Assembly (NCBI GenBank): GCA_043771825.1
Contig: JAYVGV010000037.1
Coordinates: 14,130-78,129, forward strand
Source of the DNA: Candidatus Altimarinota bacterium
Lineage (GTDB): Bacteria; Patescibacteriota; Gracilibacteria; BD1-5; UBA2023
Direction of reading: 5' to 3'
DNA length: 64,000 nt
Of this stretch, positions 6,857 to 49,573 are shown piece after piece. A model generated the notes under the pieces. The model was not told the origin of the DNA and did no database searches. It saw nothing but the letters and a program-made list of their open reading frames with translations. Each line of letters opens with the position of its first letter. The stretch's first letter is position 1. The translations under genes were made by a program, and so were the position numbers.

Positions 6857-6951
6857 AGAAAAATAAAAAATGAATATATACTGAGTATATAACAAATACA
6901 TCTTTCAGTCAAACAAAAAATCCCTCTGTGTGTGAGGAATTTTTTGTTGTT

Positions 6952-12060: not shown

Positions 12061-12086
12061 AGAGGGGTTTCAAGATGAATTGAATT

Positions 12087-12527
12087 TTAGTTTATGGCAG
12101 TGAGGACAACCCAAATAAACCAAGGGGCAATCCATATAAAAATAATTCAGGTAATCACATAAATAATTGTTTGGCGCGCTTTTTTAATCTTTTCTTCATC
12201 ACCTCATCAAGTCATAATCTGTACTCACGCATAAATAATATAGACGACAGCTACAAGTGTGACAAAGCCAAGAAAGTATAATACAGTATCAGTAACATAC
12301 ACGGCTATAGTTTTCTTAGTAAACGTATCTCCAACAGCATTTGAAGTTGCGAGAAGTCCTCAAGAAAGTGTGCAACTACCATTTTGACAATATTCAATCT
12401 GTCCAGGAGTAGGACAGCCAAATCAGAGTGTCCATCATCCACAAGCGGCATAAATAGAGTCCGTAAGGCTTATAAGAGAGAGAGAAGAGACTATGGCTAT
12501 GAGAAGAGAAGAGTATATTTTTTTCAT
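12087..12527 (-). CDS. TrbC/VirB2-like (T4SS-pilin family) small membrane protein
   Basis: ATG 12527 to TAA 12087-12089 (146 aa, seven in-frame TGAs). Signal peptide MKKIYSSLLIAIVSSLSLISLTDSIYA, a Cys-rich loop, then two TM helices flanking VAVVYIIYAGVQIMTGGGDEEKIKKARQTIIYVITGIIFI. That is the hallmark layout of TrbC/VirB2-type pilins common in CPR genomes. Confidence 0.65.
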
Positions 12528-12588
12528 ATAGCTTGAGTATAGCATATCCAAAAAGAATATGCAAATATTGTACAATATCGCTTAATCA

Positions 12589-14001: not shown

Positions 14002-14130
14002 ATATGATGGTATTATAAGATAGATTTATGGTGAATATTTCTTCTCAGAAAATATCGATACATTCAGAGAATACTCTCGAATTTGTTTATATACTGTATA
14101 TATATTTTCCATAAAATCTAGTTTTCTCTT

Positions 14131-15612: not shown

Positions 15613-15673
15613 GAGAATATGTATTTTTGTATTTTTTATTAGTGTATCATACTTTTTTGCTTCTTGCAAATAA

Positions 15674-15700
15674 TAAAAATCTCGGAATATTATCCGAGAG
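15674..15700 (-). terminator. rho-independent terminator after the pilin-like gene
   Basis: Reverse strand reads TCTCGGA-TAATAT-TCCGAGA followed by TTTTT, 23 nt after the TAG at 15723. Confidence 0.5.
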
Positions 15701-15722
15701 AGACTATCGAGAAGAATATATG

Positions 15723-16382
15723 CTAGAAATTTGACTTCCAGTTCGTCAGAGTACTATCGAGTATCACACTCTGTGCTCGACCATCTACCCATCGTACGAT
15801 ACTTCGTACCATTAAGATACCAGTCTGAGTACTTGGAGGAGGAATATCGATGAGAAGTTCACGAGTAAATATTGTTTTACAGCTTTTTTGTACAAAAGAA
15901 GTACACTGGGGTATCATCGTACCACTTTGACTATAAAAGCCGTTATTATCGAGATTGACTTGGTACATACTTTTATACGATACCCATACGAGTGGTGACA
16001 AAGTGGCTGCACCAGAGAGGAACCATGCCCCATTCTCCGCATAAAGTATGTATGATCCAGTCGAGATATATCATGGATTCGCTGGATAGGGACTCAGAGG
16101 ATTTCCTATACAAGAAGAAGAATAATCTTTCACTTTCCAGCAATTGATCTTATCACTCGAAAATCTGAGCCAGTTAGTATCCCGTATATTCGTCATACCC
16201 TCTACTCCTTCGCGAGCTATGTTTATCGCTTTTATCTTATTCTCAGTGTCTCGGGTATAGTTTATCCCTCAGCCTATCGTTTGAAGGAGTGCAGTGATAC
16301 CAAGACCAAGTATAGCAAGCACCACCATCAATTCTACGATAGTTACTCATTTTTTATTTCCGAGAATTGTGCCTATTCTCAT
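15723..16382 (-). CDS. type IV pilin-like protein (prepilin N-terminal cleavage/methylation domain)
   Basis: ATG 16382 to TAG 15723-15725 (219 aa). N-terminus MRIGTILGNKK[TGA]VTIVELMVVLAILGLGITALL is a class III signal peptide. The invariant -1 Gly is encoded by TGA at 16347-16349. Confidence 0.8.
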
Positions 16383-17761
16383 GAGAGAGTGGGAGTACCT
16401 CATTCTTTTATTATAGTAAAGAGTTGCGTAGAGAGAAGTGTGTCATTCGCTGCGTAGAATTTTATCTCATAGAGATTAAATCCTTCTTTCATAGTTCCGT
16501 AAGAGGTATTGGCATAGTAGTACCAAGCCGAACTATTCGAAGCAAATTTCTTTAATCTGAAGTTATTTACAGTGATATACTCTACAGTGTTTTTTGGTAC
16601 AGATCAGGATACAGTGATGGAGTTTAGGTTTGTCTTATAGGGATTTTCTGCTGGATTGAGTATTCGAAATATTTTATCTGATGCGGGGAAGGTCGTCGGT
16701 ATGAGTGTGTCTGTACCTTGCCTCTTCGCTTCAGAGTAGAGCGTGAGTACTCCTCTTTCGAGAAGGTTCCCTCACTCATTATAGGCTTTATATACAATGT
16801 CGAGAGTATCACTCACTATAGGCATGCCACCAAGGGAAAATGACTGGGTCTGCTTATTTATAAGGACTTCTCGATCATTGATCATCACACGAGAAACAAG
16901 GGGGTTTATTATTTTTCATTCTACTTTAAGAGAATTTCCAGATATTACAGCTCCATCTATAGGACTTGTGATAGTGATAGATTTCCCTCATGTACCATTT
17001 ATCTGAGTTATCATCTGATTTGTTCCAGAAGAGGAGATAGTAGTTCCTGTTTGATTTTTTATGACATATTGATTGAGGATTTCCTGACCATTACGAGAAA
17101 TAAAGAAGGGATTTTGCTTAATACTATCATCTATAGTGTCACTCAAGCTAGCAAGTGATGTGCCCGGGCTTATGAGATCAGATTGAGAGACCTTGATTCC
17201 TTTTCCAGCTTCGAGTATATAGTCTCTCGAGCCACTTGCACGGACTTCTATGTTTCACTTTAGGACGTATACTATACTGTATATTCTTTGTTGCTCGACG
17301 AGTATGATAGATCATTCTTTGGGGCTGAGATCGATATGTTTGAGTTTTATCAGTGAGTCTTGTCCTCCTTCTATCCAGCTGCGTCACTGCATGATAATCA
17401 GAGATCCTCCTGATCAATTGGTAGTTTCGTATGATATTTCTGCTCATTTATCTGCCCAAACATCGAGCTTATTTCCAGTGATATGTGCATTTCATGAGAG
17501 TATAGATATAAGACTATCAGATGAAGAAAATGTATCTTCTACGACGACATCACGCTTCTTTCCATTTATAGTTGTGATTATTATTTTTCCTGATCCCGAT
17601 ACAGAGAGTCAATTGAGACGGTTTTCATTTGTCTGAGTGCTTCCGATGAAGTACTGTACTATGAATATAGCAATAAGAAGAGACCCTCATAGGAGAGTCC
17701 AATTCAGGAGAGATTTGTTATTGCGAGATGGAGAACGTCCAGGGGATGAGGCGTAGCGCAT
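16373..17761 (-). CDS. hypothetical membrane-anchored protein with Ig-like beta domains (462 aa)
   Basis: ATG 17761 to TAG 16373-16375, about 20 in-frame TGAs. TM helix SLLIAIFIVQYFIG, beta-rich repeats such as KSITITSPIDGAVISGNSLKVEGKIINPLVSRVMINDREV. The stop overlaps the pilin ATG by 10 nt. Track ORFs 17178..17447 and 16624..16812 are off-frame artefacts. Confidence 0.65.
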
Positions 17762-17780
17762 AGCAAGATGAAGTGGATTA

Positions 17781-18308
17781 TTATTGTTTTGGAACAACTG
17801 ATTCAATGACGGCATACGTAGCATCTTTTCATTCTGGTATGCGTATACTCACTGTATCTCCTACGTCACAGTGATGAAATGTGACAGCTGCAAGAAGGAC
17901 ATTATAGGTCTTAGAATCGGTAGTGATCGAGTATTTCTCGCCATTTTTTGTGACGATACCGACTTTACTTTCATAGGGGATTTCTCCAATTATTTTATAG
18001 AGTATTTTTCCATTAGATTGGACTATTGCTTTGAGCTTACTTCCTTGTACGAGAAGAGACTTCGATGAGTAATTTTGAGGTACTGGGTATATATTCCCAT
18101 CGGATCCGAGCATAGAATCACCCGTAAAGACTCATTCTACTATTTTGTCATCTCATTGCTTATAGGAGGAAAGACCATCAGTAGAAAGGTCCAGATTACT
18201 CTCTCCATCTTCTCCAAGGATTCAGTTGAGTATTTTTTTAGCAGAAGAAATAGAGTTCTGTGCTGAATGTATAAGATCACGGAGTGCTTTTATTTTTTGT
18301 TCGTCCAT
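17781..18308 (-). CDS. conserved hypothetical protein (175 aa)
   Basis: Track ORFs 18222..18407 and 17829..18113 share a frame and are linked by TGAs. ATG 18308 (MDEQKIKALRDLIHSAQNSISSAKKILNG...), TAA 17781-17783. C-terminal beta-barrel-like part YPVPQNYSSKSLLVQGSKLKAIV...VGDTVSIRIPEG. No family recognised. Confidence 0.6.
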
Positions 18309-18466
18309 ATGAGGATGAGAATTAGGGTATAGGTATTGGGGATCAGAGGATATATTCCTCTTTTCTGAGTATAGTCTTCTTTTTCTATCTGTCGAGGAGA
18401 AAAACAAGAGAGAAAGAAAAAGAAATTGACAAGATTTATAAAAACAGTATTAAGCTACTATTCTTG

Positions 18467-19438
18467 TTAAGAAATGAGTATACGAGCTATGAAGTCAAGT
18501 ATATTTTTATGATAAAAAATCGCTATAATCCATCCAATTCCTAGAAATGGTCCAAAGGGAATTTGGTTTTGTAGGAGGGGAGACCTTTGTTTAAAAAGAA
18601 GGAACAGTACCCCAAATATACTGCCTATTATATAAGCAAAAGCAAAGCTCGCTATCGCATGGATTGTCCCGAGAGTCAATCATGCGAAGAGTGCAATACG
18701 CAGATCGCCTCACCCTATCCATGTGGGTATCTCCTCTGAGTCAGATATGTCTTGTTTTTCTCTCAAAAAGAAAAGGAGCGTGATAGGAAATATAAAATAA
18801 GAGGCCACGAGCTCGAAGAGATCACGGAATTTTTGCTTTCGTATGAGATACCAGCCACCAGGAAGTATGATCTGAAGATAGAAGAAAGTATAGAGTATCC
18901 ATGCTGCGAGAAGGTGATCCAATACAAAATCTGCTCCACTTCCTATATAGGTAGAGCGATCAAAAAATAGAGCTTCCAGAGGACTATAGAAGATACTTCC
19001 TACAAGAAGAGCAAGATAGGCATATATAGCTGGTACGATAATCTGATCTGGTATCTCCATATAGCGAAGATCATAGAGGATATAGACTCATGTCACGAAC
19101 CCTGCAATAAGCATAAGGATATGGGTAGGAGAGAATAGCGTTCCTCCATCTTTGATATATCCATAGGATAGGAGTGTGAATATCAGCGCCATCAGTATTT
19201 CCGCAAGAGGATAGAAAAAGGGAATATGCGTAGAACAATGTTTACATTTTCATCTCTGAAATATATAAGAAAAAAGTGGTATGAGTTCAGAAGCTCAGAG
19301 GAGATGCTGACATTTGGGACATTCACTCCGACCCATGAGTATACCTCATTTACCACTGTGCCATCTATCGACGAGTACCGTAGAGAGACTCCCGAAGAGA
19401 AGTCCCAAAATGAGTGTAAATATAAGGAGAAGTATCAT
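18467..19438 (-). CDS. pilD: prepilin peptidase (A24 family)
   Basis: ATG 19438 to TAA 18467-18469. Track ORFs 18710..19060 and 18467..18679 are in the same frame. N-terminal Cys motif GRSECPKCQHLLGASELIPLFSYIFQRGKCKHCSTHI. C-terminal IPFGPFLGIGWIIAIF. Multiple TM helices. Confidence 0.9.
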
Positions 19439-22518: not shown

Positions 22519-24552
22519 ATGAGGTTATTGTTGGTAGTGACTCAGGAAATATGCTATGATTGTTCTATGTGATATCGATCATTTCTCATCTCGTGAGCTT
22601 TATTTCTCACGCTTTCTCCCCTTATCGTCATAGGGATTGACCCGACGACCTCATGAAGGATCATCGATAATTTTAAGCAAGAGCAATATGCTATACTCTT
22701 CGAGAATCTCCCATTTGACCAGAGTGGAGCGAGTGAAATATACGAGAAAGAGTATATCCTCAATGGCTTGGAGTGACTCCGCAAGCGACTCGAAGCTACA
22801 ACAAAGGTCTATCAGACTAGGAAATCCGCTACAACTGATAAAAAGATATCACTCGAAGAAGCAATAAATACTCTCGAGAATAGTATCGCTGATACGGTAG
22901 CAGATGCTTATAAGACTGAGAGATCTATGCAAGACAAAAATGACCGCATAGAAGAGTACCAAAATCTCTCTATCGATCTCTCGGTGCGTATAAAGAAAAA
23001 TAGAGTGACAATACTCAGCTATCTTGCTAATATTTATTCTCAGGGGGCACTCATTTTCGATGAAGAAAATAGAGTAGACATATTCCAGACACTTATCATG
23101 ACTGATACCGACAGTGATACCATATCCAATGATATCATCTATAAATCACTCGTGAGTATCCTCGGACAAAAATTCATCGAAGACTATAGAAGCCTCATGA
23201 AAGAGTATAATCTCATCCAACTCCATATACGAGATGAGGTCACTCTCCTTGAGGCAGATAGTCTTATCTTAAAAAGACAGAAGGCAACTCTCATATCACA
23301 GCGTGATTATAGAGAGCAGCTTCTCGAAGCGACTCAGTGACAAGAGCTTCTCTATGAGCGGTACATAAACGCACAAATAGATACACAGAAACAAGTAGAG
23401 ACTGCATGGAAAAATGCATCAGAGCAATATATCGTGTCGATAGAAAGTCTTCTCGAAAAAAATGGATGTAATAAGTGAAAAAAGACGGGAAAAGATATAG
23501 AAAAGTGTAGCAATATACTCTCTTTTCATAGAAATGAGCGCGCACTCAAAGATATAGAAATATCATCATGATCGACGAATATTATGTCTTGGCCTATACG
23601 TACTCCTACGAGTATATCAGCATTTTTTAAGGATACTTCTTATTTCAGAGTTGTATGATCACAGCATGATGCTATAGATATACCTATGCCTCAATGATCT
23701 GATATCTTGGCTACTATGGACGGATACGTGCACTATATACTTCCGCCAGTATCTGGAGGGTACTCCTATCTTGTTCTGAAACATCCCAATGGCTATATGA
23801 CTGTGTATGGACATCTCTCGGAGATATCAGTATTTCCCTATCAGTTTGTACGTAAGGGGGATGTCATAGCACGATCTGGAGGTGCTCCAGGTACACCTTG
23901 AGCTGGACCTATGACGACATGAGCTCACCTCCACCTCGAAGTATGGAAAGATAGAGAGTCGATCGATCCACTTCGGGTCCTCGATATTTCTATCCTCGAC
24001 TATTCGAATCTTCCATCGAGATACCAAGATAAATTCATCTCTGATATAGTAGAAAGAGTCTGAACTGGAGCTGATCTCTCAGGGTATGATCGCAAATTCA
24101 TCATCAAATGAGATACAGAAGAAGCACGCCAAAAATATCTTCTGCGTACATATGCTACTCGTGATTTCCAAAACTGGGATCTCTGGGTAGATACGGCTCT
24201 GGATGCTCGTATAGATCCGAGCTTCATCATGTGTGTATGACTTGCGGAGACGACTCTCGGTAACTATCTCAAAACTCCATATAATATAGGAAATGTCTGA
24301 AATACAGATAACGGAGATACGGCATCGTTTTCTTCGGTAAAAGAAGGTATCGCATGGATGGCATCTACATTTAATAATCGATACCTCTCGCAGTACAACT
24401 ATGTGAGTGAGCTCTCTCGATGGGGAAATCCTGACGGAGTCATATATGCTTCAAGTAATGCGAATTGGCATAATAATATTATCCGATGTATTTCTTCTCT
24501 TAAGGGAAGATTCGTAGAGGATAAATACAATTTTCGACTGAAAACTCAGTAA
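22519..24552 (+). CDS. bifunctional cell-wall hydrolase: coiled-coil + M23 peptidase + glucosaminidase/muramidase-like domain
   Basis: Track ORFs 22927..23340, 23707..23901 and 24358..24552 share a frame with only TGAs between them. M23 motifs: [68 protein letters not shown]. C-terminal CVGLAETTLGNYLKTPYNIGNVGN...YASSNANWHNN resembles the FlgJ/glucosaminidase fold. Start ATG 22519; ATG 22495 or 22567 are possible. Confidence 0.8.
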
Positions 24553-24660
24553 CAATCCATTTCTAGATGTAGACTTTTTTAAAAAATCTGTCTATGAGAT
24601 GAATACAAATCTGTACACATCTTTTATACGAGACGTCTAGTGATTTTTCTTTATCTTCCC

Positions 24661-24688
24661 TTGATAAAGCTAATACCGTCTATATAAT
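24661..24688 (+). promoter_or_regulatory. sigma70-like promoter of fibre cassette 1
   Basis: TTGATA (24661-24666), 16-nt spacer, TATAAT (24683-24688), 25 nt upstream of ATG 24713. Confidence 0.5.
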
Positions 24689-24712
24689 CTTTGTATCTTT
24701 TTCTTTATTTCC

Positions 24713-26062
24713 ATGCTGAAGGCTCGACAATTTCTGTTTCCTGCTTTTCTTCTCTTAGCACTCACTGGGATTATCTATGTCCTCTCGGCTTCTGAAGAGA
24801 CCCTGCTCTCTAAGAATTATGGTAATCCCCATGTTGTAGGCATTTTCAATACATGAGGGAATGCTGGCATGATATCTTTTGATGATGTGCCATATGGATA
24901 CTCAGGAGCTCAAGTGATATGATATGGAAGTACTGTTGTGACATTGACGGGTATATTTTGGATGGAGACGACTGGGTGGGCAACTTTCTCTGAGAGTCAA
25001 GTCACGATGATACCGCCAGTCTCATGAGATAACATCCGTGATCCCTGGTATCTCTCTGGATATGCCTGGAGTCCGAATGCTGGCTGGATCGCACTCAATC
25101 ACGGAGAGTCGTATGCATCAGGTGTAGCTTTCATGCCTGACATCAGTCAGCTCGTATGATATGGCTATAGTGAGAATCTTGGTTGGATACCCTTCTGAGA
25201 ATATTCTGGTTCTGGTATTGCTGTAAATATGAGTGATTGATTCATCTGAAAGGTATCGATCGCAGGGAGTATAGGATGATCCAAAACTTTCAATGTCCTC
25301 TATGATGTAGGAGGATCTTTTAATACTGTCTCCATGACAGCATTCGTGAATCTGGTGCGTAAAAATATCACGATACTGCTACGAAATGCAGGATCAAAGA
25401 TCAATACAAATCTCAGTGGACTCTGAGCTCAGTCATTCAATAAATCAATGATATTTCGAACGGAAAATAACCCGACATCAACATTTGTAAAATATTCAGA
25501 TATTAAAAATGCCTTCAACTTCGATCTCTCACGGAGCCTGATAGTGATAGGGGCTGACATATATATCGATGTAGATGCTCCAAATGCTATCTGATCCTCT
25601 CGAGCGATCATCGCTCTGAAAAATGAAAAAGGTGAATGAGGAAATATCTATATTGATGGATCGGTGAAGATTATAGAGTCAGTACTTTTTTCGGAGAGAT
25701 CTATCATATCTTGAGCAGAGTTTATCACGGGTTCACTCTCTTCATACTATGTCTCGAAGAAATCCGTATTTCTCGATATTCCACGGAACCAACTCTATAT
25801 CAAGTGAGCTATCTGAGGATTCAATACTATAGGCTGAAGCTCGAAAGATGATGGTGCTGTCTGTCCATATCTCAGTGATAACTCGATCTTATGTAGCTAT
25901 GATAACGCTATCAAATATGATTGGAACTATTTCCGTATATACAACTGATCTCCCGCCCGACGAGCCTACCCAAATAGCTCGAAAGATGCATTCTCCGTCA
26001 TCATAGAGTACGACCCTCGTATCGTCCAAGATCCACCTCCAGGACTGGAGACTCTCAACTAA
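24713..26062 (+). CDS. 449-aa secreted GW-motif protein, partner of fibre protein 1
   Basis: ATG 24713 to TAA 26060-26062. I checked every line in this frame: about 17 TGAs, no TAA/TAG. Signal/TM FLFPAFLLLALTGIIYVL. Repeated GWATF / AGWIAL / LGWIPF motifs. Ends ...VIIEYDPRIVQDPPPGLETLN. Paralog of 40240..41589, with identical length. Confidence 0.75.
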
Positions 26063-26117
26063 TAGCCTTCTCATCGAAGTGACAGTCCCTCTTCGTATAC
26101 TCCTTATTTTTCCTACT

Positions 26118-29100
26118 ATGTCTTTCTTTCGTATACCATTCATCGTTGTTCTACTTTCATTGAGTAATGTAGCTATGACAGGAGCTGTAAGCTATCCATC
26201 TACAGGTCCTGCAGGAAGCTATTCAGGATGAAGCTTTGGGACATACCTCCAGAACTTGATCACCAATCCTTGTCCTCTATGACAAGTGATGACAAGTTTT
26301 AGTACATGAAGTTCTGACTATGGTAGACCCAATTGTGTATTTGCTTCACTTCCACCATGAGTATTTGGCAATACCGTATACTATAATGGTAGCTCATGGG
26401 TAGCGAGTAACGTCATATATAATGATGCTGTCAATGTCGGTATCTGACTCGGGGGATTAGTGCCACAAGCAAGACTAGAAGTAGGCTGAGGAGTGAAGAT
26501 CGCTGGTGATACCGCTCTCTGCAATACCGGGAAAGCCGGTACTATACGATATAATGGTACGAATGTCGATTATTGTAATGGTACAACTTGGTGATCTCTC
26601 GGATGATCAGGAGGATGGTGACTCACGGGAAATGGGGGAACAAATTCAGGAACCAACTTCCTCGGAACGACAGATAATATCGATCTCGTATTCAGACGCA
26701 ACAATATCGAAGGGATGCGTCTCTCTGGTGCGAGTGGCAATCTCGTGACGACTGTAGATGCCACGATCAATGGAGTGATAGTAGGACGAGGAGGAGGGAA
26801 TATTGATACCAACACCGCGAATGGATCGGGTGCTCTCTTCTCCAACACCACAGGAGATAGCAATACCGCGAATGGAGTCGCTGCTCTCTATTCCAACACC
26901 ACAGGAATCTACAACACCGCAAATGGAGCCTTTACTCTCCAAAACAACATCACGGGAAGCTTTAATACCGCGAATGGAGCCTCCGCTCTCATCAGCAACA
27001 TCACAGGTAGCGACAACACCGCAAATGGACATGGCGCATTAGGAAATAATACTACTGGAAACTCCAACACCGCGAATGGACTGAGCGCATTAGTACGTAA
27101 CACCACTGGAACCAACAACACCGCGAATGGAGTCTTTGCTCTCTTCTTCCACACCACGGGAACCGGCAACACCGCGAATGGATTTCGGGCTCTCTACAAC
27201 AACATCACGGGAAACTTTAATACTGCACTTGGGAGCTCTGCAGGATCCGCTATTACCACTGGTTCATCGAATATTGCCATAGGATACAATGCTCAGGTAG
27301 CGTCTCCTACCGGATCGAATCAGCTCTCTATCGGGAACTGGATCTATGGAAGTGGTGGGAATATCGGTATCGGTACCTCTACTCCATGAGCTCGGCTCGA
27401 AGTGGCAGGACAAGTGAAGATCACAGGTGGTTCTCCATGAATTGGAAAAGCCCTAATCTCAGATGCTACAGGTCTCGCAAGCTGGCAGACTCCAAGTGGT
27501 GGCAGTGGCTGTATACCGAGTGGAACGGGTGCAGATAATACTTGTCTTTGAACAGGGGCTTTACAACTCAATACAATTGGAACACTAAATACAGCGATAG
27601 GGAATCAAACATTGAGTAAAAATACTACTGGTTTTATAAATACATCAATTGGTGATAGAGCCTTACGAGATATGACAATAGGTGATTCAAATACTGCTAT
27701 CGGATGATGATCTATGAAACTTAATGTTTCTTGAACGAATAACACAGCAGTATGAGCAAATTCTTTAGTCAACCATACTTCAGGCAATAAAAATGCTGCA
27801 TTTGGTGAATATACTCTCAACGCTCTTACGAGTGGTAATGCAAATATTGCCATCGGTAGTGCAGCTTTCTATACTCTGACTTCAGGTTCAGATAATATAG
27901 CTCTTTGAGCAAATTCTACCTTAACTGTAGGTTCCAATAATATCGCTATAGGGAATAATCTTGCTTTAGCATCTTGATCAATAAACAAACTCAATATCGG
28001 TAATTGGATCTATGGAAGTGGGTGAAATATCGGTATTGGTACTTCTACTCCATCCGAAAAACTCGAAGTGGCTGGAGGAGATGCTATCATCTATGGAGTG
28101 AGAGTAGGAAGAGGAAGTGGGGCTATTGCTACGAATACAGCAGTAGGATCTGGTGCTCTCTTCTCCAACACCACAGGATTCTATAACACCGCGAATGGAG
28201 GGAGTGCTCTCGGCTCCAACACCACAGGATTCTATAACACCGCGAATGGAGGCATTGCTCTCTACTCCAACACCACTGGGGGCTGGAATACCGCGAATGG
28301 ACTCAATGCTCTCTACTCCAACACCACGGGATGGTATAACACCGCGAATGGAGCCTCTGCTCTCCAGAACAATACCACGGGAGAATTCAACACCGCACTC
28401 GGCTCTCAGGCAGGATCAGGTATCACTACTGGATCATCGAATATTGCCATAGGATACGGTTCTCAGGTAGCATCTGCTACTGGATCGAATCAGCTCTCTA
28501 TCGGGAACTGGATCTATGGAAGTGGTGGGAATATCGGTATCGGTACTGCTACTCCATGAGCTCGGCTCGAAGTAGCAGGACAAGTGAAGATTACTTGAGG
28601 TGCACCCTGAGTGAATAAAGTCCTCATCTCAGATGCTACAGGTCTCGCGAGTTGGCAGACGGTGCCAGCATCAACGAGCTCATGGAATATCCTCGGAAAT
28701 AGTGGTACCGTCGCAGGTACCAACTTCCTCGGAACCACGGATAATATCGATCTCGTATTTAAGACGAATAATATAGAACAAGCAAGATTGTATGCTTCTA
28801 ATACCGGTGGCATATCTCTCTGAAAGTCAAATAATAGCGTGACTACTGATAGATCATATATAATCGGTGATACCAATACTCTCAGTGGTTCATTTGGCTT
28901 TATATTTTGAAGATCGAATACTCTGGTAGGCGTAGGTGCAGATATGATACTCTGATACAATAATCAGCTTACTACATCATATGGTCTAGTGAATGTCATC
29001 GGATCAAATAATGTCAAAACGGGATCATGGGGAACTGTCATATGAAGATGAAATACTGTCACGGGTGGTGATAGTACGATAGTGATGTGAGAATCAAACT

Positions 29101-32100
29101 CTATAACAGGACATAATGCTATCGTCATGGGAAACGGGAATAATGCGCCGTATAATAATGACACGATAATCTATGGAAATGCGAACTCTCTCGACACAAA
29201 TATACATTATAATGTACTGAATGGTATATCGAATAAGGCAACTACCAATGGTTGAATGGGATGACGTATAGCATATGGTATAGCCAATAGCTCCCAACAA
29301 GGCTGAGCTATAACTATAGGATCATATAATACAGGATCAGCATCCAATGCTATAGCTATAGGATCACGTATCGATAATAACATCGCAAACTCAGTACAAA
29401 TAGGTCCAAATGATGCTTCGAAAATCACTATCCTTTCTTGATGACAGATGGGTATCGGTACTTCTACTCCATCAGCTCTACTCACGGTCTCAGGTTCGGC
29501 ACTCATCACGAGTGACCTCACAGTCCAAGGGAAGGTGATCTCTGATACCTTCGTGAATCGTACCGTGAATAATGTCACGATCTCAGGATCCCTCCTGCCT
29601 GATCTCGCAGCTCCTCTCGCTTACCGTGATATCGGAAATAATACGACGCAGAGCTGGAACAATCTCTATCTCTCTGGTCAGGTGACTATCAAGGGTGGCG
29701 CTCCCTGAGTAAACAAGTTTCTCACCTCAGATGCTACTGGTCTCGCGAGTTGGCAGACAGTGCCAGCTTCTCTGAACTCATGGAATATCCTCGGAAATAG
29801 TGGTACCGTCGCAGGTACCAACTTCCTCGGAACGACAGATAATATCGATCTCGTATTCAGACGCAACAATATAGAGGGGATGCGTCTCTCTGGATCGAGT
29901 GGCAATCTCGTGACGACTGTAGATGCCACGATCAATGGTATAACCGTAGGAAGAGGAGGTGGCGCGATAGCAACCAATACTGCTGTCGGGTCTGGTGCAC
30001 TTCAGGCTAACACCACAGGAAGCAACAACACCGCGAATGGAGCTAATGCTCTCTCCTCCAACACCGATGGATCCAACAACACCGCGAATGGAGCTAGTGT
30101 CCTCGCCTTCAACACCACGGGATACTCCAACACCGCGAATGGACATTCTGCTCTCTACTCCAACACCACGGGATACTATAACACGGCGAATGGCGTCTCT
30201 GCTCTCTACTCCAACACCACTGGGGGCTGGAATACCGCGAATGGATCCCTTGCTCTCCAGTCCAACACCACAGGAAGCAACAACACCGCGAATGGAATAC
30301 AGGCTCTCCTCTCCAACACCACGGGATACTGGAATACCGCGAATGGAGAGGGTGCTCTCCTCTCCAACACCACAGGAAACAGCAATACCGCGAATGGAAG
30401 GTATGCCCTTGCTAACACCACAGGAAATAGCAACATCGCACTTGGGATTGCTGCAGGATCGACTATCACCACTGGATCATCGAATATCGCTATCGGTAAT
30501 GCTGCACAAGTAGCATCTGCTACCGGATCCAATCAGCTCTCTATCGGGAACTGGATCTACGGAACGAGTGGGAATATCGGTATCGGTACCGCGACTCCAT
30601 GAGCTCGGCTCGAAGTCGCAGGACAAGTGAAGATAACTGGTGGTACTCCTGGTCTCGGTAAGATCCTCATCTCAGATGCTACAGGTCTCGCAACATGGCA
30701 GACCCCAATGGCTTCTCTATCAGGATCGTTCTGGTCTCTCCTTGGAAATAGTGGTACGGTCGCAGGTACCAACTTCCTCGGAACGACAGATAATATCGAT
30801 CTCGTATTCAGACGCAACAATATAGAGGGTATACGTCTCTCTGGTGCGAGTGGGAACCTCGTCACTATAGTAGATGCTACGATCAATGGTGTAAGAGTGG
30901 GAAGAGGAGGAGGGAATATAGGGAGTAATACCGCGAATGGATCGGGTGCTCTCTCCTCCAACACCACGGGAACCTCCAATACTGCGAATGGAATACAGGC
31001 TCTCTGGCTCAACACCACAGGCTTCAATAACACCGCGAATGGAGCCGTTGCTCTCGCCTACAACACCACGGGAACCTCCAATACCGCGAATGGAGTGCAG
31101 GCTCTCTGGCTCAATACAACAGGCCTCAACAATACCGCGAATGGAGCGCAGGCTCTCCGGTCCAACACCACGGGAAACTGGAATACCGCGAATGGACATT
31201 CTGCTCTCTACTCCAACACCACGGGATACTATAACACGGCGAATGGCGTCTCTGCTCTCTACTCCAACACTACAGGAATCTATAACACCGCGAATGGATC
31301 CCTTGCTCTCTACTCCAACACCACAGGCTTCAATAACACCGCGAATGGAGCGCAGGCTCTCTATTTCAATACGAGTGGATCCAATAATACGGCGAATGGT
31401 CAGAGTACTCTTGCCTTCAACACCACGGGAGTCGGCAACACCGCGAATGGAATACAGGCTCTCTATTCCAATACGTCTGGAAGTGCTAATGCCGCGAATG
31501 GTGCTAGCGCTCTCTTCTCCAACACCACTGGAAGTGGTAATACAGCGAATGGAGCCAATGCCCTCTACTTCAACACCACTGGAAACTTCAATACCGCGAA
31601 TGGAGTGCAGGCTCTCCAGTCCAACACCACTGGATCGGATAATGTGGCGAATGGAGTCTCTGCTCTCCGCTTCAATACCACGGGAACCGGTAATACAGCG
31701 AATGGATCCCTTGCTCTCTACTCCAACACCACTGGGGGCTGGAATACCGCGAATGGACTCAATGCTCTCTACTCCAACACCACGGGATGGTATAACACCG
31801 CGAATGGTGGAGGTGCTCTCAATTCCAACACCACGGGAAACTTCAACACCGCACTTGGACTCTTTGCAGGCAACCTTATCACCACAGGATCATCGAATAT
31901 TGCTATAGGCTACGGTTCTCAGGTAGCGTCTCCTACCGGATCGAATCAGCTCTCTATCGGGAACTGGATCTATGGAAGTGGTGGGGATATCGGTATGGGT
32001 ACCTCTACTCCATGAGCTCGGCTCGAAGTCGCAGGACAAGTGAAAATCACAGGTGGTTCTCCATGAATTGGAAAAGCCCTAATCTCAGATGCTACAGGTC

Positions 32101-33296
32101 TCGCAAGCTGGGGAACTCCTATCAACTGTACAGCATCTGGAAGTGGGCTCAATAATATTTGTTATGGTACCTTCTCCCTACAAAATAATACTACAGGACA
32201 AAATAATGTCGCCTATGGAAACGAGGCACTCAGAAATAATAACGGAGGAAGTGCGAATGTGTCCCTCTGATATGGGTCTATGTACTACAATACGAGTGGA
32301 TCGAGCAATGTGGGAATCGGTGTATATGCTCTCAATAGTAATACTACTGGTGTTGCGAATGTCGGTATCGGTCCAGATAGTCTTGCATATGCAAGTACAG
32401 TGAGCTATAATATCGCTTTGGGAAGTTCTTCACAGAAAGAAAATAGATCTTGAAACAATAACGTAGCAGTAGGTGCAGAAGCTCTCAGGCTTAACTTCAC
32501 TGGATCCTTTAATTCAGCATTTGGAAATGCAGCAGCTACTCAGATGCAGTCCACTGCAAGTAGTTTTGTAGAATGAAATAATGCGTTTGGAGCCTATGCT
32601 CTCCAAGGAGGAAGTAGTACAGGTAGTCTCAATACTGGATATGCTAATTCGGCATTTGGTAACTATGCCCTTCTCGGAACCACAGGAACTCCGACTACAG
32701 GATTCCAGAATTCAGGATTTGGTAATACTTCTCTTCAGACAGTGACAAGTGGATCCAATAATGTCTGAGTAGGATATGGAGCAGGGAATGGACTCACTTC
32801 AGGATCCAACAATATCTTTATCGGTGCCAATATCGTTCCCGTCTCAAATACTGCTTCAGATCAGCTCTCTATTGGGAACTGGATTTATGGAAGTGGGTGA
32901 AATATAGGTATCGGAGTATCTAGTCCAACACAAAAACTCCACGTGAATGGAAATGTCCTTGCTGATGCATTCCTCTACGTATCTGATGCTCGCATGAAGC
33001 AAGACGTGACAGGTATAGAGAATGCTGATGATATACTCACGAAACTTCAGGGAGTGCGATTTGTCTGGAAAGCAGATGGTCGAGCGGATATAGGATTTAT
33101 CGCTCAGGAAGTAGAGAAGGTACTTCCTGACCTTGTCCATACTGATAGTACTGGCATGAAGAGTGTCGAATATGGGAATATCATCCCAGTTCTTGTCGAA
33201 GGATATAAGTCAGAAAAATCTCGTGCTGATCTACTCGAATCTCGAATGGACACACTTGAGGCCCGACTCCAATCCCTTGAATCTGCTAATAAATAA
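26118..33296 (+). CDS. giant modular tail-fibre-like surface protein 1 (2392 aa) with C-terminal Peptidase_S74 chaperone domain
   Basis: Track ORFs 26715, 28068, 28611, 29448, 29760, 30627 and 32943 are all in the frame of ATG 26118. I read the gaps between them codon by codon and found only TGA. TAA at 33294-33296. Signal peptide MSFFRIPFIVVLLSLSNVAMTG. About seven modules, each ending NQLSIGNWIYGSGGNIGIGTSTPGARLEVAGQVKITGG.PG.GK.LISDATGLASWQT. Four arrays of 17-aa SNTTG..NTANG..AL repeats. C-terminus VSDARMKQDV...RFVWK...IGFIAQEVEKVLPDLV...VEYGNIIPVLVEG plus a coiled coil. Confidence 0.85.
26800..27235 (+). repeat. 51-nt (17-codon) tandem coding repeats, array 1 of fibre gene 1
   Basis: TCCAACACCACAGGA recurs at 26841 and 26892 (51-nt period). 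About 8 units of SNTTGxxNTANGxxAL[YF]. Confidence 0.8.
27294..27485 (+). repeat. 192-nt module-junction repeat, copy A
   Basis: Matches 31920..32111 with 4 mismatches by my alignment. Shorter, related copies at about 28492-28590 and 30525-30645. Confidence 0.85.
28149..28402 (+). repeat. 51-nt tandem coding repeats, array 2
   Basis: About 5 units: ALFSNTTGFYNTANGGSALGSNTTGFYNTANGGIALYSNTTGGWNTANG... Confidence 0.8.
29990..30440 (+). repeat. 51-nt tandem coding repeats, array 3
   Basis: About 9 units: ALQANTTGSNNTANGANALSSNTDGSNNTANG... Confidence 0.8.
30930..31865 (+). repeat. 51-nt tandem coding repeats, array 4 (longest)
   Basis: About 18 units. Almost free of stop codons in several frames on both strands, which explains track ORFs 30937..31908(+) and 30720..31199(-). 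Confidence 0.8.
31920..32111 (+). repeat. 192-nt module-junction repeat, copy D
   Basis: Direct repeat of 27294..27485. The offset is 4626 nt (3 x 1542), so the copies are in the same reading frame. Confidence 0.85.
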
Positions 33297-33304
33297 CTAA
33301 AATT

Positions 33305-33796
33305 ATGAAAAATAGATATCATCCCATCCACTATGTACTTGTTGTATCCATCTTAGGAGTACTTGCTCATTATATTATCGCTTTTGCAATAGTTGATGAG
33401 TGAAGAACACTTCAGAGTTTTACTTTACCAGGAGGAGCAATATCAACATCATTTCAGTCACTTCAAAATGGTTGGAGGAATAATGGTATAGAGACTTTTG
33501 ATATCACTACTCCTGAAGCGTGCTATACTATAAATGTAAGTGATACACGAAACTTCTTCATACCTACGAGGACACTCCAGGAATGGACAAGGTTTAAAAT
33601 CGCAGGATTAAATACGATAACGCCTTATACTTGCTGATCAACATGTGATATCAATAGTGGTCCTGTGATGTCAGAGGTAGTATGTCCACCTAAAGAGATG
33701 TGTACATTTGGTATTAAGTGTATACAATATGCAAATGAATGTCAAATGATAGCAGCATGATGAACTGTCGGCCCAAACTGTCAGCTAGCTATTTAA
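33305..33796 (+). CDS. small Cys-rich membrane-anchored protein (163 aa)
   Basis: ATG 33305, 9 nt after the fibre-1 stop, to TAA 33794-33796, with four in-frame TGAs. TM helix YVLVVSILGVLAHYIIAFAIV. C-terminus has 8 Cys (TPYTCGSTCDINSGPVMSEVVCPPKEMCTFGIKCIQYANECQ). No family recognised. Confidence 0.55.
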
Positions 33797-33846
33797 GAAA
33801 ATTGATTCATTTTAAATTAAAATTCTATAATTTATAGGATTTTAAT

Positions 33847-33945
33847 TTATAGGAGTTCTATATTTCTATACTTCTCTTCGAGCTTCGTAAGTTCACTCTC
33901 AGCTAAGTATATCTTCTCTATCTCGATTCGTATGACTTTCTTTTC
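33847..33945 (-). pseudogene. degenerate duplicate of the valS 3' end
   Basis: The reverse strand encodes EKKVIRIEIEKIYLAESELTKLEEKYRNIELL-TAA. The true ValRS tail (34284-34385) reads [34 protein letters not shown]. About 70% nucleotide identity by eye. No upstream coding continuity. Confidence 0.45.
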
Positions 33946-33947
33946 CC

Positions 33948-34217
33948 TTATTTCTGCCAAGGTTCTTTTCCTTGGATTTCTGATATATGCTCGAAGGCTT
34001 GCATGATCAGTCTATGTGTCATATTGTGCTGGAGCTCTTCTTCATGTCGGAACTCTGCGAGGTCTCGGCGTATACTATCGAGAGAGACTTCGAAACGAGA
34101 GTTTGTTCACTCCTGCTTAGCATTAAAAGCTTCTTGCTTAGCATTCGTAGCCTCCTGCTTCTGAATAAATCCAGTAAGGAGCGAGAGTATATTATCGAGC
34201 TTTTGTTCGGTAGTCAT
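33948..34217 (-). CDS. small hypothetical coiled-coil protein (89 aa)
   Basis: ATG 34217 to TAA 33948-33950, one in-frame TGA. MTTEQKLDNILSLLTGFIQKQEATNAKQEAFNAKQEG... Lies between valS and the duplicated valS tail. Confidence 0.4.
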
Positions 34218-34283
34218 AAGTGATATTATTATGAATATGGATTCTAGTATAGCGTATTTCTTTAGGGGGGCAAATTTTTCTCC

Positions 34284-37100
34284 CTAATGTACTTCAGTAT
34301 GCCTATATTTCTCTTCGAGTTTTTTGAGTTCAGTCTCACTGATATGCATCTTCTCCATCTCTATGCGTACGACTTTCTCTGGAGCATTTGCTACGAAGGC
34401 AGTATTTTTGAGCTTTATCTGTACACTTCTTATATAGTTTTTCTTATTTTCTATTTCTTTTCCGAGTCGATCTCGCTCTTCTTCGAGTTTTTCTTTATCG
34501 AGGGAAGCATCGACATATATTTCTATACCATCAGTGATTCCATAGGCATATCCGATTCACTTGATAGATCGATCTTCGATCGTGAGAGTTGCTATACGTG
34601 CGAGGCCACTGATAAGTGGTATATTTGCTTCTAGAGAATCTCGGTAGATCGTCGGAACTATCAGGATGACGTCTCTCTGTTCACCAGGCCTGATGCCTGA
34701 TTCTGCACGCAGATTGCGGATCATGCGCACGATCCCCCATATACGTGTCATAGCAATCTCACTTTCCTTATCACTGTTGAGACTTGTTTCTGTCCAAGTA
34801 CTGGTTGCGAGGATCTTCCCACCGGTGATATGTCCATAGAGCATCTCGGTGATATGAGGAGCGTAGGGATGGAGAAGTGTCAATATATCGATGATACAGA
34901 GAGACATGACGTCTTTTCCAAGGGTACTCCGATCTTTTTCGATCTTATAAGCTTCTATGGCAAAGTCAGCGAATTCATCACGGATGAAAGATAAGAGATC
35001 TCCTCCAGAGAGAGAGAAGCTATAGTCTTCCATACCAAGGGTCATCTTCTCTATGATACCAGCAAGTCGAGAGAGTATCCATGCCTCATAGGGAAGGAGG
35101 GCTTCCTTATTTTTGGTTATTCGCTTTTCTATGACTTTTCGTTCCTCGGCGATATCTCCTACGTTCATCCAAGTGAACCTTACGATATTCCAGAATTTAT
35201 TGAGAAACAATCCATACTCAGCAACATTTTTTATAGAGAAATTCAGATTATTTCCTGGGGTATTTCCGAGTACGAGAGAGAGACGAAGTGCATCGACAGA
35301 ATATTCATCGATGATCGTGAGGGGATCGATGATCGCCCCAGAACTTTTACTCATCTTTTTGCCATCTTCATTGAGTACGAGTCCATGGAGATAGATCGTC
35401 TTAAATGGAGTCTCTCCCGTATATTCATATCCCATGAGGAGCATACGTATGACCCAGAAGAAGAGAATGTCATATCCTGTTTCGAGGACATCTGCTGGGT
35501 AATATTTCTCGAAGAATTCTCCTGGATTCTCTATTGTATAATCGAGCACAGAAAATGGCCAGAGAGCACTAGAGAACCATGTATCGAGTACGTCGTCATC
35601 CCTCTTTAGGAAAACTTCTGAAAAGCTCGTCTCTCGAATTCTATTTTCCGTTTCTTCATTCGGCGTATTTGGAGATACGCCCGATTCAGATACTCAAACC
35701 TGATCCGACGTACTTCGCTTTTGAGAGGTTTTCCATATTTTTAGAAGCTCAGCATTCGGATTTATGCTATATTTTTTACATTGTGTGAGATATATATCAG
35801 TAGGATCTCTCGTCACTCCGAGAAGTTCACGAGTCTTCGTGTCATAGTATGCTGGTATCTGGTGTCCCCACCAGAGCTGACGAGATATACACCAGTCACG
35901 AAGATTATAGATCCAATCTTCGAATGTCTTCTCGAAGCGAGAGGGGACGATCTCGAATTCATCATTTTCATAGCCTTTGATGACTTTCTCTGCGAGCATA
36001 CTTGCCCGTACAAACCACTGTGTCGATACCACAGATTCGATACGACACTTACTTCGTTCGCAGAATCCGACCTTATGTTTATAGGGTTCTATGCGTACGA
36101 GATTCCCCTTAGATCGTAGGAGTTCTACGATATTTTCTCGTGCATCTGTATCTGCTTTTTGTCCAGCGAAGGTCCCTGCCTCTTTGTTCATATAGCCATT
36201 TCTATCGATGACAGTATAGTTTCTTTTGAGATTATGTCGCTTTGCTGTCTCGAAATCAGTAGGATCATGTGCTGGAGTGATCTTCACGACCCCAGTACCG
36301 AACTCTATATCTACCATCTCATCAGCGATGATAGGGATTTCTTTATTCACTATAGGGAGTATGACAGATCGCCCTATGAGTTTTTTGTATCTCTTATCCT
36401 TTGGGTGTACTGCGACTGCTTGATCTGCGAGGAGTGTCTCAGGGCGTGTCGTCGCTATGAGGAGCTCCTTATCACTTCCAGATACGAAATAGTTCACATA
36501 GTACATCTTCTCTTCTACTTCTATATGCTCTACTTCTATATCTGAGATCACAGACTCAAGTGCAGGAGAGTAGTTCACCATATACTCACCACGGTATATG
36601 AGTCATTTATTATAGAGATCGACGAAAATATTCTCGACGAGAATATTCGAACTTTCATCAAAAGTATATCTTTCTCTCGACCAGTCCACACTTGATCACA
36701 TTTTTCGCATCTGATTCTGGATATTTCCTCCATATTCACTGACCCAATCTTCACACTCTTTCATGAATGCTACTCTTCCTATTTCTTTTCGAGACTTTCC
36801 TTTTTTCGCGATACGAGCTTCTACTTTTGCTTGAGTAGATATACCAGCATGATCTGTCCCTGGTACCCAGAGAGTCGTATCTCACTTCATCCTATGGTAT
36901 CGTATCATGATATCTTGGAGTGTGAGCATGAGTGCATGTCCAATATGGAGATTTCCTGTCACATTAGGAGGAGGTATCGGAATATAAAATGTCTTCCCCG
37001 TACGGCCTAGAGAGGGTACAGCGATATTATTTTTTTCCCAAAGATCTTGCATCTGTCATTCACAGGATTTCGGATCATATTGTTTTGAAAATTCTGACAT
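34284..37100 (-). CDS. valS: valine--tRNA ligase
   Basis: Track ORFs 37056..37304 (from internal M at 37100), 35694..36581 and 34557..35549 share a frame and are joined by TGAs. Motifs: [36 protein letters not shown]-terminal coiled coil. TAG at 34284-34286. 938 aa. Confidence 0.95.
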
Positions 37101-40239: not shown

Positions 40240-41589
40240 ATGAATCGTAAACTTATATTTGCGATCATGCTTATCGTTCTTATGGGTGCAGGTATTTTTA
40301 ATACCTTCTGAGTAGGGAAATTTTTTCGTCTCCGAGGAGATTTTATACCGAGTCTCTCCTGGTCTTGAGGATATCCTGGGAGAGTATTATTTGATATTGC
40401 GACTGGAGCAACAAATAGTGGATTTGCTCCAGGGATTGATCTAGATGGTTATCTTTCGGGTTCATTCTGGCTTGGGAATGTCGGGTGGACTACCTTTAAT
40501 CATAGTACTACAGGTGTCGCTCAAGCACGAGTCCTCTGTGCGAATATCGTATTTAATGACCCAAATATTACCTGTCCTGTCGATGGATTTGCTTGGAGTC
40601 GAAATAGCGGATGGATCGCCCTATCAGGATCATTCATCGATGGAGGATCCTGAGTATACTATAATCCTGCAGCATGACGTATACAATGATTCGGGCATAG
40701 TACAGCACTCTGATGGATACCTTTCTATGCTGATACGACCACGCCAGTGACTACGACGACTCAAACGTGAGTCCTCCTTAATGGTATGGGGCTTAACTTC
40801 ATCTGAAAGATCGCTATAATAGGGAATATAGCAGGTACACGAATATTTAATGTCACGAATCAGCAGGTATGATATGTATTCACGACGATCAACCATGCAG
40901 ATATGCTCAATATTATCCGAAAAAATATCGCACTCATATCGCGAAATGCGAATCCTACAGAACTCGCAGATCCTTTTAGTACGAAGTTTAATTTTCTTCT
41001 TCAAAAAGGCTCTGACTATGATACGAGTATCCCATGATGGACTTGGCCGACTTCCAAAAAATCGATCATCATCATCGGATGAGATGTCATACTCGATCAA
41101 TCTCAAATCTGACTTATTAATACAAATAAAGCCCTCATAGTTCTCAAAGATGAGAGCGGAAGCTGAGGAAATATCATCATACGAGAAGGAGTGGGTCGTA
41201 TATATGCATTTATCTATGCTGAAGGTTCTATATATTCCTGAGATAAGACGGCTACATGACTCATAGTACCTTATGTGGCGAAGTGAGTATGGAATATACC
41301 AGGAAATCAGCTCTATATCAAGGGGGCTATCATCTCAAAAAATACTATCTGAGGATCACTCCAGTCCCCACCTACTTGTCCTGTAGTGATAGCGAACTGT
41401 GATGCACTCAATTCGCAAATCTATGATGTGAACTATTTTCGTACCTATGACTCTACAGATCTCACTCAGAGGAATATCCCCAGTATGTACTATAATGATC
41501 TACGCTTTTCTGCTGCATCTACCGTCATTGAATACAATCAATCTCTCGCGACGGATCCACCTCCAGGGATATCATCAATATTCCAATAA
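40240..41589 (+). CDS. 449-aa secreted GW-motif protein, partner of fibre protein 2
   Basis: ATG 40240 to TAA 41587-41589, read line by line (about 25 TGAs, no TAA/TAG). Shares these with 24713..26062: GWIAL, LGWIPF, FIGK[VI].I.G.I.G..[TI]FNV, IRKNI, GGNI.I, PGNQLYIKGAI, NTIGGS, and the C-terminus VIEYNQSLATDPPPGISSIFQ. Confidence 0.75.
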
Positions 41590-41610
41590 ACTTCTCTAAC
41601 CTTTCTTCCC

Positions 41611-47493: not shown

Positions 47494-47504
47494 AAGATTC
47501 TCGA

Positions 47505-47531
47505 TAAAAAAGCCTCATTGGGGCTTTTTTA
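47505..47531. terminator. bidirectional terminator between convergent fibre-2 and ABC-F genes
   Basis: AAAAAAGCCTC-ATT-GGGGCTTTTTT hairpin with A- and T-runs, between the stops at 47493 and 47542. Confidence 0.6.
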
Positions 47532-47541
47532 TCATGTACAC

Positions 47542-49498: not shown

Positions 49499-49573
49499 TC
49501 CCCGATAGCTCAGCGGTAGAGCAACCGGCTGTTAACCGGTAGGTCGTAGGTTCGAATCCCACTCGGGGAGCCA
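49499..49573 (+). tRNA. tRNA-Asn (GTT anticodon), CCA encoded
   Basis: Cloverleaf: acceptor TCCCCGA/TCGGGGA, D-arm GCTC-AGCGGTA-GAGC, anticodon arm ACCGG-CTGTTAA-CCGGT, T-loop TTCGAAT, 3' GCCA. A TTGACT element at 49411-49416 may be its promoter. Confidence 0.9.

Follow-up and report, generated by a model that had tools for sequence, protein, structure and literature searches.

The DNA analysed here is a window of 64,000 nucleotides from a Candidatus Altimarinota bacterium (assembly GCA_043771825.1, contig JAYVGV010000037.1, forward-strand positions 14,130 to 78,129), a member of the Gracilibacteria within the candidate phyla radiation (CPR). The window holds two gene cassettes, each encoding a protein of 449 residues, here termed the partner, followed by a very long fibre protein with a conserved N-terminal region, here termed the N-module. 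Apart from the type IV pili of Saccharibacteria, little is known of the means by which ultrasmall CPR bacteria locate and keep hold of a host.

The two cassettes become visible only when the correct genetic code is used. Gene calling at 24.7-47.5 kb with translation table 11 yields short overlapping open reading frames (ORFs) only. Reading UGA as a sense codon increases the total ORF length in the window almost threefold and gives ORFs as long as 2,430 codons; TAG and TAA were rejected as sense codons. In a UGA-masked alignment, the UGA codons of the cysteinyl-tRNA synthetase (CysRS) encoded in the window fall on invariant glycines of solved CysRS structures, and the code is therefore code 25, in which UGA specifies glycine. 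This is the code of Gracilibacteria and Absconditabacteria. Together with the taxonomy of the homologues, it supports assignment of the window to Gracilibacteria. Read in this way, the five ORFs of an earlier note on this DNA (the original prediction) are all present at the coordinates given there:

24713-26062, + strand: partner 1, 449 aa, class A, first-ATG code-25 ORF
26118-33296, + strand: fibre 1, 2392 aa, predicted precursor of an S74-type trimeric fibre resembling the mosaic adhesive trimers (MATs), code-25 ORF
33305-33796, + strand: small Cys-rich protein, 163 aa, 8 Cys
40240-41589, + strand: partner 2, 449 aa, class B
41611-47493, + strand: fibre 2, 1960 aa, non-S74 MAT-like fibre

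The intergenic gaps in cassette 1 measure 55 nt, as originally described, and 8 nt rather than 9. The pair does recur at 40240-47493; the separation of 14 kb given for it does not hold, as the cassette starts are separated by 15.5 kb and the intervening DNA measures 6.4 kb.

The fibres are built from an exported N-terminal module, a long repetitive shaft and a C-terminal tip that differs between the two cassettes:

26118-26342, + strand: fibre 1 Sec signal peptide and Cys-bracketed N-module, aa 1-75 (GA|VS-YPSTGPAG..GGSFGTYLQNL..C..GQV..SF...P.C)
26790-31937, + strand: fibre 1 shaft, four 17-aa repeat arrays between other units
26790-27317, 28110-28487, 29955-30527 and 30903-31937, + strand: fibre 1 repeat arrays, 17-aa (51-nt) unit NTANGxxALxSNTTGxx, TRF period 51
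32982-33296, + strand: fibre 1 Peptidase_S74 domain (putative intramolecular chaperone and autoprotease) with coiled-coil tail, aa 2289-2392
41611-41835, + strand: fibre 2 signal peptide and N-module, matching the N-module hidden Markov model (HMM) at E 1.1e-24
47008-47490, + strand: fibre 2 distinct, non-S74 C-terminal tip, about aa 1800-1960

In every fibre encoded next to a partner, the N-module stands directly after the signal peptide and follows the consensus P...P.G...GG.[FY]..YF[QD]N...C..G.V..GF...P.C. In each of the 15 fibre N-termini inspected, a basic n-region and a hydrophobic core precede a small-x-small site that lies 0-3 aa ahead of the N-module; the signal peptides were judged by inspection rather than by a trained predictor. 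A search of protein databases with a 55-aa N-module profile, limited in sensitivity by its word index, returned five tiny fragments only.

The shaft of fibre 1 contains about 48 copies of the 17-aa repeat in four main arrays, six module terminators (NQLSIGNWIYG..IGIGT..P...L), four GQVKITGG..G.GK.L.SDA.G.A.W knots, four GTTDN..L.F.TNN units and one divergent block (aa 880-1150), for which the earlier count of about seven fibre modules is a fair description. Against PHROGs, this shaft matches tail-spike and virion proteins at E 1e-47 to 1e-65, and its repeat blocks are 39-49% identical to their closest phage relatives, the marine tail fibres of Pelagibacter, Roseobacter and Prochlorococcus phages. 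The Pfam domain PF13884 (Peptidase_S74, 'chaperone of endosialidase') is found at aa 2289-2341 (E 4.6e-14, 52.9 bits against a cutoff of 22). The catalytic motif SDxxxK is present as S2289-D-A-R-M-K2294, and self-cleavage is predicted to occur before Ser2289. The C-terminus also matches 37 tail-fibre PHROGs and PDB 6f45, the tip of a T4-like long tail fibre. Fibre 2 has no S74 domain and no Pfam match at all, and its tip has no meaningful PHROG match.

The closest cellular counterparts are the MAT fibres of Bdellovibrio bacteriovorus, such as Bd3182, Bd2133, Bd1334 and Bd2439 (Caulton et al. 2024, PMC10769870). These are defined by a signal peptide, a conserved domain right after it, a long trimeric shaft with the capping loop V-G-G/N-x-x-x-P-x-x-x-L, and an S74 (SDxxxK) or alternative tip (PMC10769870). 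The capping-loop motif occurs six times in fibre 1 and eight times in fibre 2. When a shaft-unit profile built from both fibres and their relatives was searched against 177,635 PDB sequences, the only matches were Bdellovibrio MAT structures: Bd2133 (E 1e-6), Bd3182 (1e-5), Bd1334 (1.5e-5 and 0.018) and Bd2439 (2e-3). Fibre 2 itself has a single PDB match, 8OJN (E 4.8e-4), which is the S74-group MAT fibre Bd3182 (PMC10769870). Because the shaft profile matches MATs only and the architecture largely fits the published definition, it is well supported at the level of sequence that the fibres are cellular, Sec-exported MAT-like adhesins, cassette 1 being of the S74 type and cassette 2 of the non-S74 type. 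The likeness to phage tail fibres and to the adhesins of predatory bacteria, proposed originally as analogy, is homology, as seen in the Peptidase_S74 domain of fibre 1 and in the MAT-specific shaft matches.

The repeat arrays of fibre 1 are unusual in codon usage. None of their 133 glycine codons is UGA, against a window background of 23.4%; the GC content at third codon positions is 0.48-0.56 against 0.37; and the choice of Thr, Ser and Asn codons is shifted. UGA use is normal between the arrays and in the equivalent repeats of fibre 2. This composition suggests either a relatively recent gain of the arrays from a standard-code donor or the expansion of a UGA-free founder unit.

The partner belongs to a family with no assigned identity. 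Partners 1 and 2 share 35% identity over 396 aa (E=8e-55). Clustered at 90% identity, the homologues of partner 1 fall into 79 groups, every one ~420-510 aa in length and either unnamed or 'hypothetical'; where organism names are given among these clusters, they are Gracilibacteria (Altimarinota) only. Neither partner has a Pfam, NCBIfam or PHROG match. The family shares GW motifs, which in partner 1 read TGWATF, AGWIAL and LGWIPF, as well as two invariant cysteines in the ectodomain, which in partner 1 belong to the C-terminal half. The N-termini carry two or more basic residues and then a stretch of 16-25 hydrophobic ones; as there is no consistent cleavage site, this segment is probably a signal anchor, and the partner a membrane-anchored protein.

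Structure models were examined for two proxies, the class-B homologue P0072 (70% identical to partner 2; AlphaFold pLDDT 78.8, pTM 0.75) and the class-A homologue P0015 (65% identical to partner 1; pLDDT 82.5, pTM 0.80). Both models are confident and share one layout. It opens with an N-terminal helix and a beta-rich GW-repeat domain, continues through a low-confidence linker and then a long helix, and closes with a beta-solenoid-like C-terminal half and a C-terminal DPPPGL motif. Neither model has a match at E<=1e-3 in the PDB or among the viral structures of BFVD. The matches that recur below threshold are fucose-lectin propellers, to which the GW-repeat region aligns without significance (E 0.024), and the Thermus competence pilin ComZ, which ranks second in both PDB fold searches (probability 0.57 and 0.23, E 0.03-0.3). 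The partner thus lacks a housekeeping identity in Pfam, NCBIfam, PHROGs, PDB or BFVD, in line with the original failure to recognise its family.

Public copies of the family are often mistranslated. Most of the entries P0001-P0078 were translated with code 4 (UGA=Trp) and carry ~15-25 spurious tryptophans in place of glycine, P0001 having 22 W where the correct code-25 translation has 7; code-11 gene calls break the fibres into fragments. Pipelines that build families from such entries therefore misrepresent or miss both partner and fibre proteins.

The pairing was followed through the loci of distant partner homologues and through a survey of one genome per species, translated with code 25; stop-to-stop ORFs in six frames were scanned with HMMs. 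The genome survey gave 29 loci: 24 in Gracilibacteria or 'Peribacteria', four in 'Patescibacteria group' genomes and one weak match in Sedimentisphaerales. Adjacency was assessable at 27 loci with a partner of ~450 aa, comprising the two window cassettes and 25 others. At 25 of the 27, a gene encoding an N-module lies directly beside the partner gene, at partner identities down to about 30%, so the partner and fibre genes are kept as neighbours as the original prediction anticipated. The N-module ORF is immediately downstream in 23 cases and immediately upstream in two. The gap between partner and fibre is typically about 10-60 nt, rising to about 330 nt in two examples with fibres of ~420 aa. 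Among the scanned loci, N-module matches are confined to ORFs that adjoin partner genes or occupy the upstream-cassette position. Fibre lengths range from about 420 to 2,737 aa, and an S74 domain closes about half of the fibres that are complete.

Partner and N-module have also diverged together. Their identities correlate strongly across loci (Mantel r=0.78; 0/5000 permutations as high). Orthologous partners of different genomes are 58-70% identical, paralogues within a genome only ~40%, and the cassette classes cut across genomes. Because of this co-divergence, and because orthologues are closer than paralogues, the partner and the N-module must have been passed on together ever since an old duplication. 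The order of cassettes seen in the window, S74 upstream of non-S74, recurs in relatives (L022/L005 on one contig, L007 and L006). In L034, where the partner is 83% identical, the order is M23 peptidase, partner (449 aa), S74 fibre (2516 aa) and small protein (177 aa), and the fibre gene is intact, as it is in the window. The locus of partner 2 is fully syntenic in the Gracilibacteria genome HHAS10 (L002, the locus that holds P0072). In the window, cassette 1 sits between the M23 peptidase gene and the gene for valyl-tRNA synthetase (ValRS); in HHAS10 these two genes are adjacent (L002 4176-4235, corresponding to window 24553-34283) and the slot is empty. As the slot is empty in HHAS10 and filled in L034, cassette 1 is an insertion/deletion polymorphism among Gracilibacteria.

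The pairing extends in part to longer partner relatives. Those of 874 aa (L025) and 907 aa (L036) are also followed by an N-module ORF; in L036 (7923-11570), the 907-aa code-25 protein precedes a 308-aa ORF with a weak N-module match. No N-module ORF follows the genes of a partner subgroup of ~800 aa or a standard-code relative next to a PilC-like gene. The latter is a protein of 1186 aa in a CPR genome (L035 5414-11561), located after the PilC-like (T2SSF_N) gene with no fibre nearby. These long relatives, together with the rank of ComZ, hint at a possible ancestral link between the partner superfamily and type IV pilus machinery.

The third gene of cassette 1 appears to belong to the S74 subtype. 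Homologues of the small protein lie after or near S74-type fibres in L003/L004, L027, L022 and L034. The small protein has no Pfam, NCBIfam or PHROG match; its signal peptide has the site AFA|IV, and its core reads ...C..NFFIPTRTLQEWTRF...C. Together with these homologues it shares a signal peptide with an AxA site, the core ...C...[FM][FI][VI]P[ST]xT..EW..F...C and variable Cys- or Gly-rich tails. The AxA cleavage site suggests that the small protein is secreted, probably as an accessory of the S74 subtype. Originally the small protein was described as membrane-anchored with 8 Cys and the partner as secreted with GW motifs. The cysteines and the GW motifs stand, and the two topology labels were probably swapped. 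In L004, the Cys-rich tail of the small protein shows homology with the C-terminal region of a fibre in L024 that is short and of the non-S74 type. The 'Rosetta-stone' idea, in which the small protein would provide in trans the tip that fibres of the non-S74 type have in cis, was not relied on: it concerns the variable tail in this one pair, not the conserved core.

These observations suggest, with a probability of roughly 0.55, that each cassette is a chromosomal operon for a trimeric surface fibre that binds another cell, the N-module of the fibre being docked or assembled by the cognate membrane-anchored partner. In this scheme, the fibre precursor would be exported by Sec and would trimerise into a beta-helical shaft of the MAT and phage-tail-fibre type, trimerisation being suggested by the S74 domain. 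In cassette 1, the C-terminal S74 intramolecular chaperone would cleave itself off before Ser2289 and expose the distal tip, with the small secreted Cys-rich protein acting as an accessory; in cassette 2, the different, non-S74 domain would form the distal end. The ~50-aa Cys-bracketed module at the mature N-terminus would be the cell-proximal end of the displayed fibre. Here, the ~450-aa partner, held in the membrane by its N-terminal helix, would contact the N-module through its beta-rich ectodomain and dock or assemble it, each fibre class having its own matched socket. The distal tip would then bind a host or prey cell. A more specific form of this proposal is that the partner is the socket of a MAT-type fibre: a membrane-anchored protein of unseen fold that forms class-specific lock-and-key pairs with the N-module. 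This form is tentative, and its chance of being correct is clearly below even.

Several points weigh against the proposal. The gene order is reversed at two loci (L015 and L023), and at two of the 27 assessable loci (L018 and L020) there is no adjacent fibre. The C-terminal half of the partner also ends many proteins of 750-1240 aa in other contexts, an exhaustive profile search yielding 7,638 representatives at 50% identity, 230 of them with E<=1e-30. Because this half belongs to a large superfamily, the role of the partner may exceed fibre docking. The choice between a signal anchor and a cleaved signal peptide was made by eye only, and host binding is suggested by likeness to MATs and phage fibres.

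Adjacency and co-divergence would be equally expected if the partner were a dedicated, transient factor for export, folding or assembly, in the manner of a chaperone or usher, and the fibre were attached by something else. Tight operon coupling and class-specific co-divergence fit cognate chaperones, as with those of phage tail fibres, and fibres of the non-S74 type, having no intramolecular chaperone, may need help in trans. However, the partner accompanies S74 fibres too, which carry their own chaperone; it is unlike any phage tail-fibre chaperone family in PHROGs; and its large (~430-aa), disulfide-containing, beta-rich ectodomain with lectin-like repeats is unlike the known small fibre chaperones. 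We consider an assembly factor unlikely, and a host-directed effector less likely again. In the latter case the partner would be a lectin, a co-adhesin or an enzyme acting on surface polysaccharide, and the pairing would reflect shared target specificity. The weak resemblance of the GW-repeat region to fucose-binding beta-propeller lectins (E 0.024), its occurrence in multiple copies in extracellular proteins with TSP3 or PKD domains, and the beta-solenoid-like C-terminal half, as found in many depolymerases, are consistent with such an effector. Neither fold search gave a match at E<=1e-3, however, and in the comparison of the partner with the invariant proximal module of the fibre the two co-vary. 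A membrane-anchored protein of ~450 aa would, moreover, be far from a target held at the end of a fibre of ~2,000 aa.

A distant relative of pilus-tip proteins or minor pilins, coupling the fibre to a type IV pilus, would agree with the two PDB fold searches, in each of which second place goes to the beta-solenoid competence pilin ComZ of Thermus, with the PilC-like gene adjoining a longer partner relative and with the pilin-like and prepilin peptidase genes 5-9 kb upstream of cassette 1; an interplay of MATs with type IV pili has also been raised as a possibility (PMC10769870). This role is quite improbable: the ComZ matches fall well short of significance, the partner shows neither a class III (prepilin) signal nor an N_methyl match, and pilus genes are lacking near most partner loci. 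The least probable reading is that the cassettes are remnants of prophage tail-fibre modules with no cellular function. In its favour, many tail-fibre and tailspike families of phages match the S74 domain and the 17-aa repeats, and the composition of the fibre 1 repeat arrays is foreign. The neighbours of the cassettes are housekeeping genes, in the window M23 peptidase, ValRS, sugar transferase, Lgt and ABC-F and in other genomes RpoBC, UvrC and TsaD, and the cassette neighbours include no baseplate, virion or other phage genes. Chromosomal synteny is kept across genomes down to ~35% partner identity, and many metagenome-assembled genomes have intact fibre ORFs, the longest of 2,737 aa. A pattern scan of 2.9 million viral contigs found, within its sensitivity, no relative of the partner, and none occurs in PHROGs. 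Together with the Sec signal peptides of the fibres, these findings largely refute a prophage origin.

Sequence elements that may control transcription were found around both cassettes:

24661-24688, + strand: sigma-70-like promoter candidate of cassette 1, TTGATA-16-TATAAT, 11/12 consensus matches
33957-33975, + strand: terminator-like hairpin downstream of cassette 1, 6-bp stem with 4 GC pairs and T-rich tail, weak evidence
47502-47534, no strand assigned: hairpin at the end of cassette 2, 13-bp stem flanked by A and T runs

The promoter candidate, noted originally as a consensus promoter, is indeed the top site in 24400-34400, a span of 10 kb; it lies within a 160-nt intergenic gap, 25 nt upstream of the ATG of partner 1. 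The region contains 26 promoter-like sites against 23.4 in shuffles, a count not above chance, and for this reason a promoter role is plausible but not proven. A comparable consensus promoter was sought for cassette 2 and none was found. The strong hairpin at 47502-47534 is a candidate bidirectional terminator common to fibre 2 and the convergent ABC-F gene.

Other genes in the window are of interest in their own right. Upstream of cassette 1, the minus strand at 12087-19438 encodes a T4SS_pilin-like protein (152 aa), a solute-binding protein, an M23 peptidase, an N_methyl pilin-like protein (226 aa) and a prepilin peptidase (A24_N_bact); the prepilin-peptidase/M23 part is also found upstream of the cassette in L034, and it does not lie beside partner genes in other genomes. 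Further upstream, at 4550-12135 (- strand), are two large surface-type proteins of 783 aa (PKD domains by Pfam) and 1727 aa, the latter showing by eye a PKD-like repetitive body, a C-terminal transmembrane segment and a long tail, acidic and rich in Pro, in which the motif 'IPDWLK' is repeated. Downstream of cassette 2, at 49623-57999 (- strand), lies what by eye resembles a type I restriction-modification operon, with HsdR-like (983 aa), HsdS-like (510 aa) and HsdM-like (596 aa) proteins and small inserted genes; a tRNA-Asn is located at 49499-49573.

The operons suggest that Gracilibacteria share a fibre type with Bdellovibrio and other predators, so that the MAT family now takes in the CPR and a lineage that uses code 25. 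They make the partner a concrete candidate for fibre attachment or assembly, at least in Gracilibacteria. The range of fibre lengths, the variation of tips and the presence of several cassette classes per genome may offer a way to infer host-range diversity from metagenomes. If the partner does act as a socket, no anchoring mechanism would have been identified earlier for predatory or episymbiotic adhesins of this class, and the paired genes would provide a genomic marker for the host-recognition repertoires of uncultivated CPR bacteria.

Compared with known systems, the fibres resemble phage tail fibres and tailspikes (K1F endosialidase, T5 pb1 and the distal subunit of T4-like long tail fibres) in an S74 domain above the Pfam cutoff and its Ser-Lys motif. 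In contrast to these, they are Sec-exported and chromosomally encoded, and their N-terminus is not a phage tail-attachment domain. The small gene immediately downstream of fibre 1 recalls the gp37/gp38 arrangement of T-even phages, whereas its product, unlike gp38, has its own signal peptide. Neither partner nor the small protein has a PHROG, Pfam or NCBIfam match to tail-fibre chaperones of the Tfa, gp38 or gp57 type, and identity with a phage tail-fibre assembly chaperone was rejected for want of family membership. The concept of a long, repetitive trimeric adhesin with short Asn/Thr/Gly-rich repeats is shared with trimeric autotransporter adhesins (YadA/Hep_Hag). An outer membrane is not expected in a CPR bacterium. 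A Pfam scan of both fibres gave Peptidase_S74 only, with no YadA_anchor, Hep_Hag or other domain of that class, and this identity was discarded. Likewise, the partner was rejected as a type IV pilin, having no N_methyl Pfam match and no class III G|FxxxE motif at the N-terminus. The CPR predator Vampirococcus lugosii has giant surface proteins (WD40/TPR/PKD-type) with a proposed role in host recognition (PMC8080830); no S74 or MAT-like fibres and no partner gene are described there. Within the literature collection searched, no paper was found that ties CPR predators to S74 or tail-fibre proteins.

The MAT family remains the nearest relative. Like MATs, the fibres are cellular, bear signal peptides and are very long, with a capping-loop shaft and several paralogues per genome, and the contrast between the S74 tip of fibre 1 and the other tip of fibre 2 mirrors the S74/non-S74 split among MATs. 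Unlike MATs, which are about 1,000 aa, the fibres here reach 2,392-2,737 aa and contain long 17-aa repeat arrays; the conserved module that follows their signal peptide, a possible counterpart of the MAT N-terminal domain, is of ~50 aa with two Cys, against a beta-rich domain of ~130 aa in MATs; and their genes are coupled to a conserved partner gene, in a code-25 CPR bacterium. No CPR member is listed among the MAT-bearing lineages (PMC10769870). The fibre type has been described before, as the MAT family (PMC10769870) and the S74 phage fibres, and the partner and the pairing are new. Also new are the presence of the fibres in a code-25 CPR lineage and their very large, repeat-expanded forms, and above all a co-diverging partner of unrecognised fold. 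For MATs, the surface element that binds the invariant N-terminal domain 'awaits further study' (PMC10769870). The partner is the best candidate for the cell-surface anchor of a MAT-like fibre.

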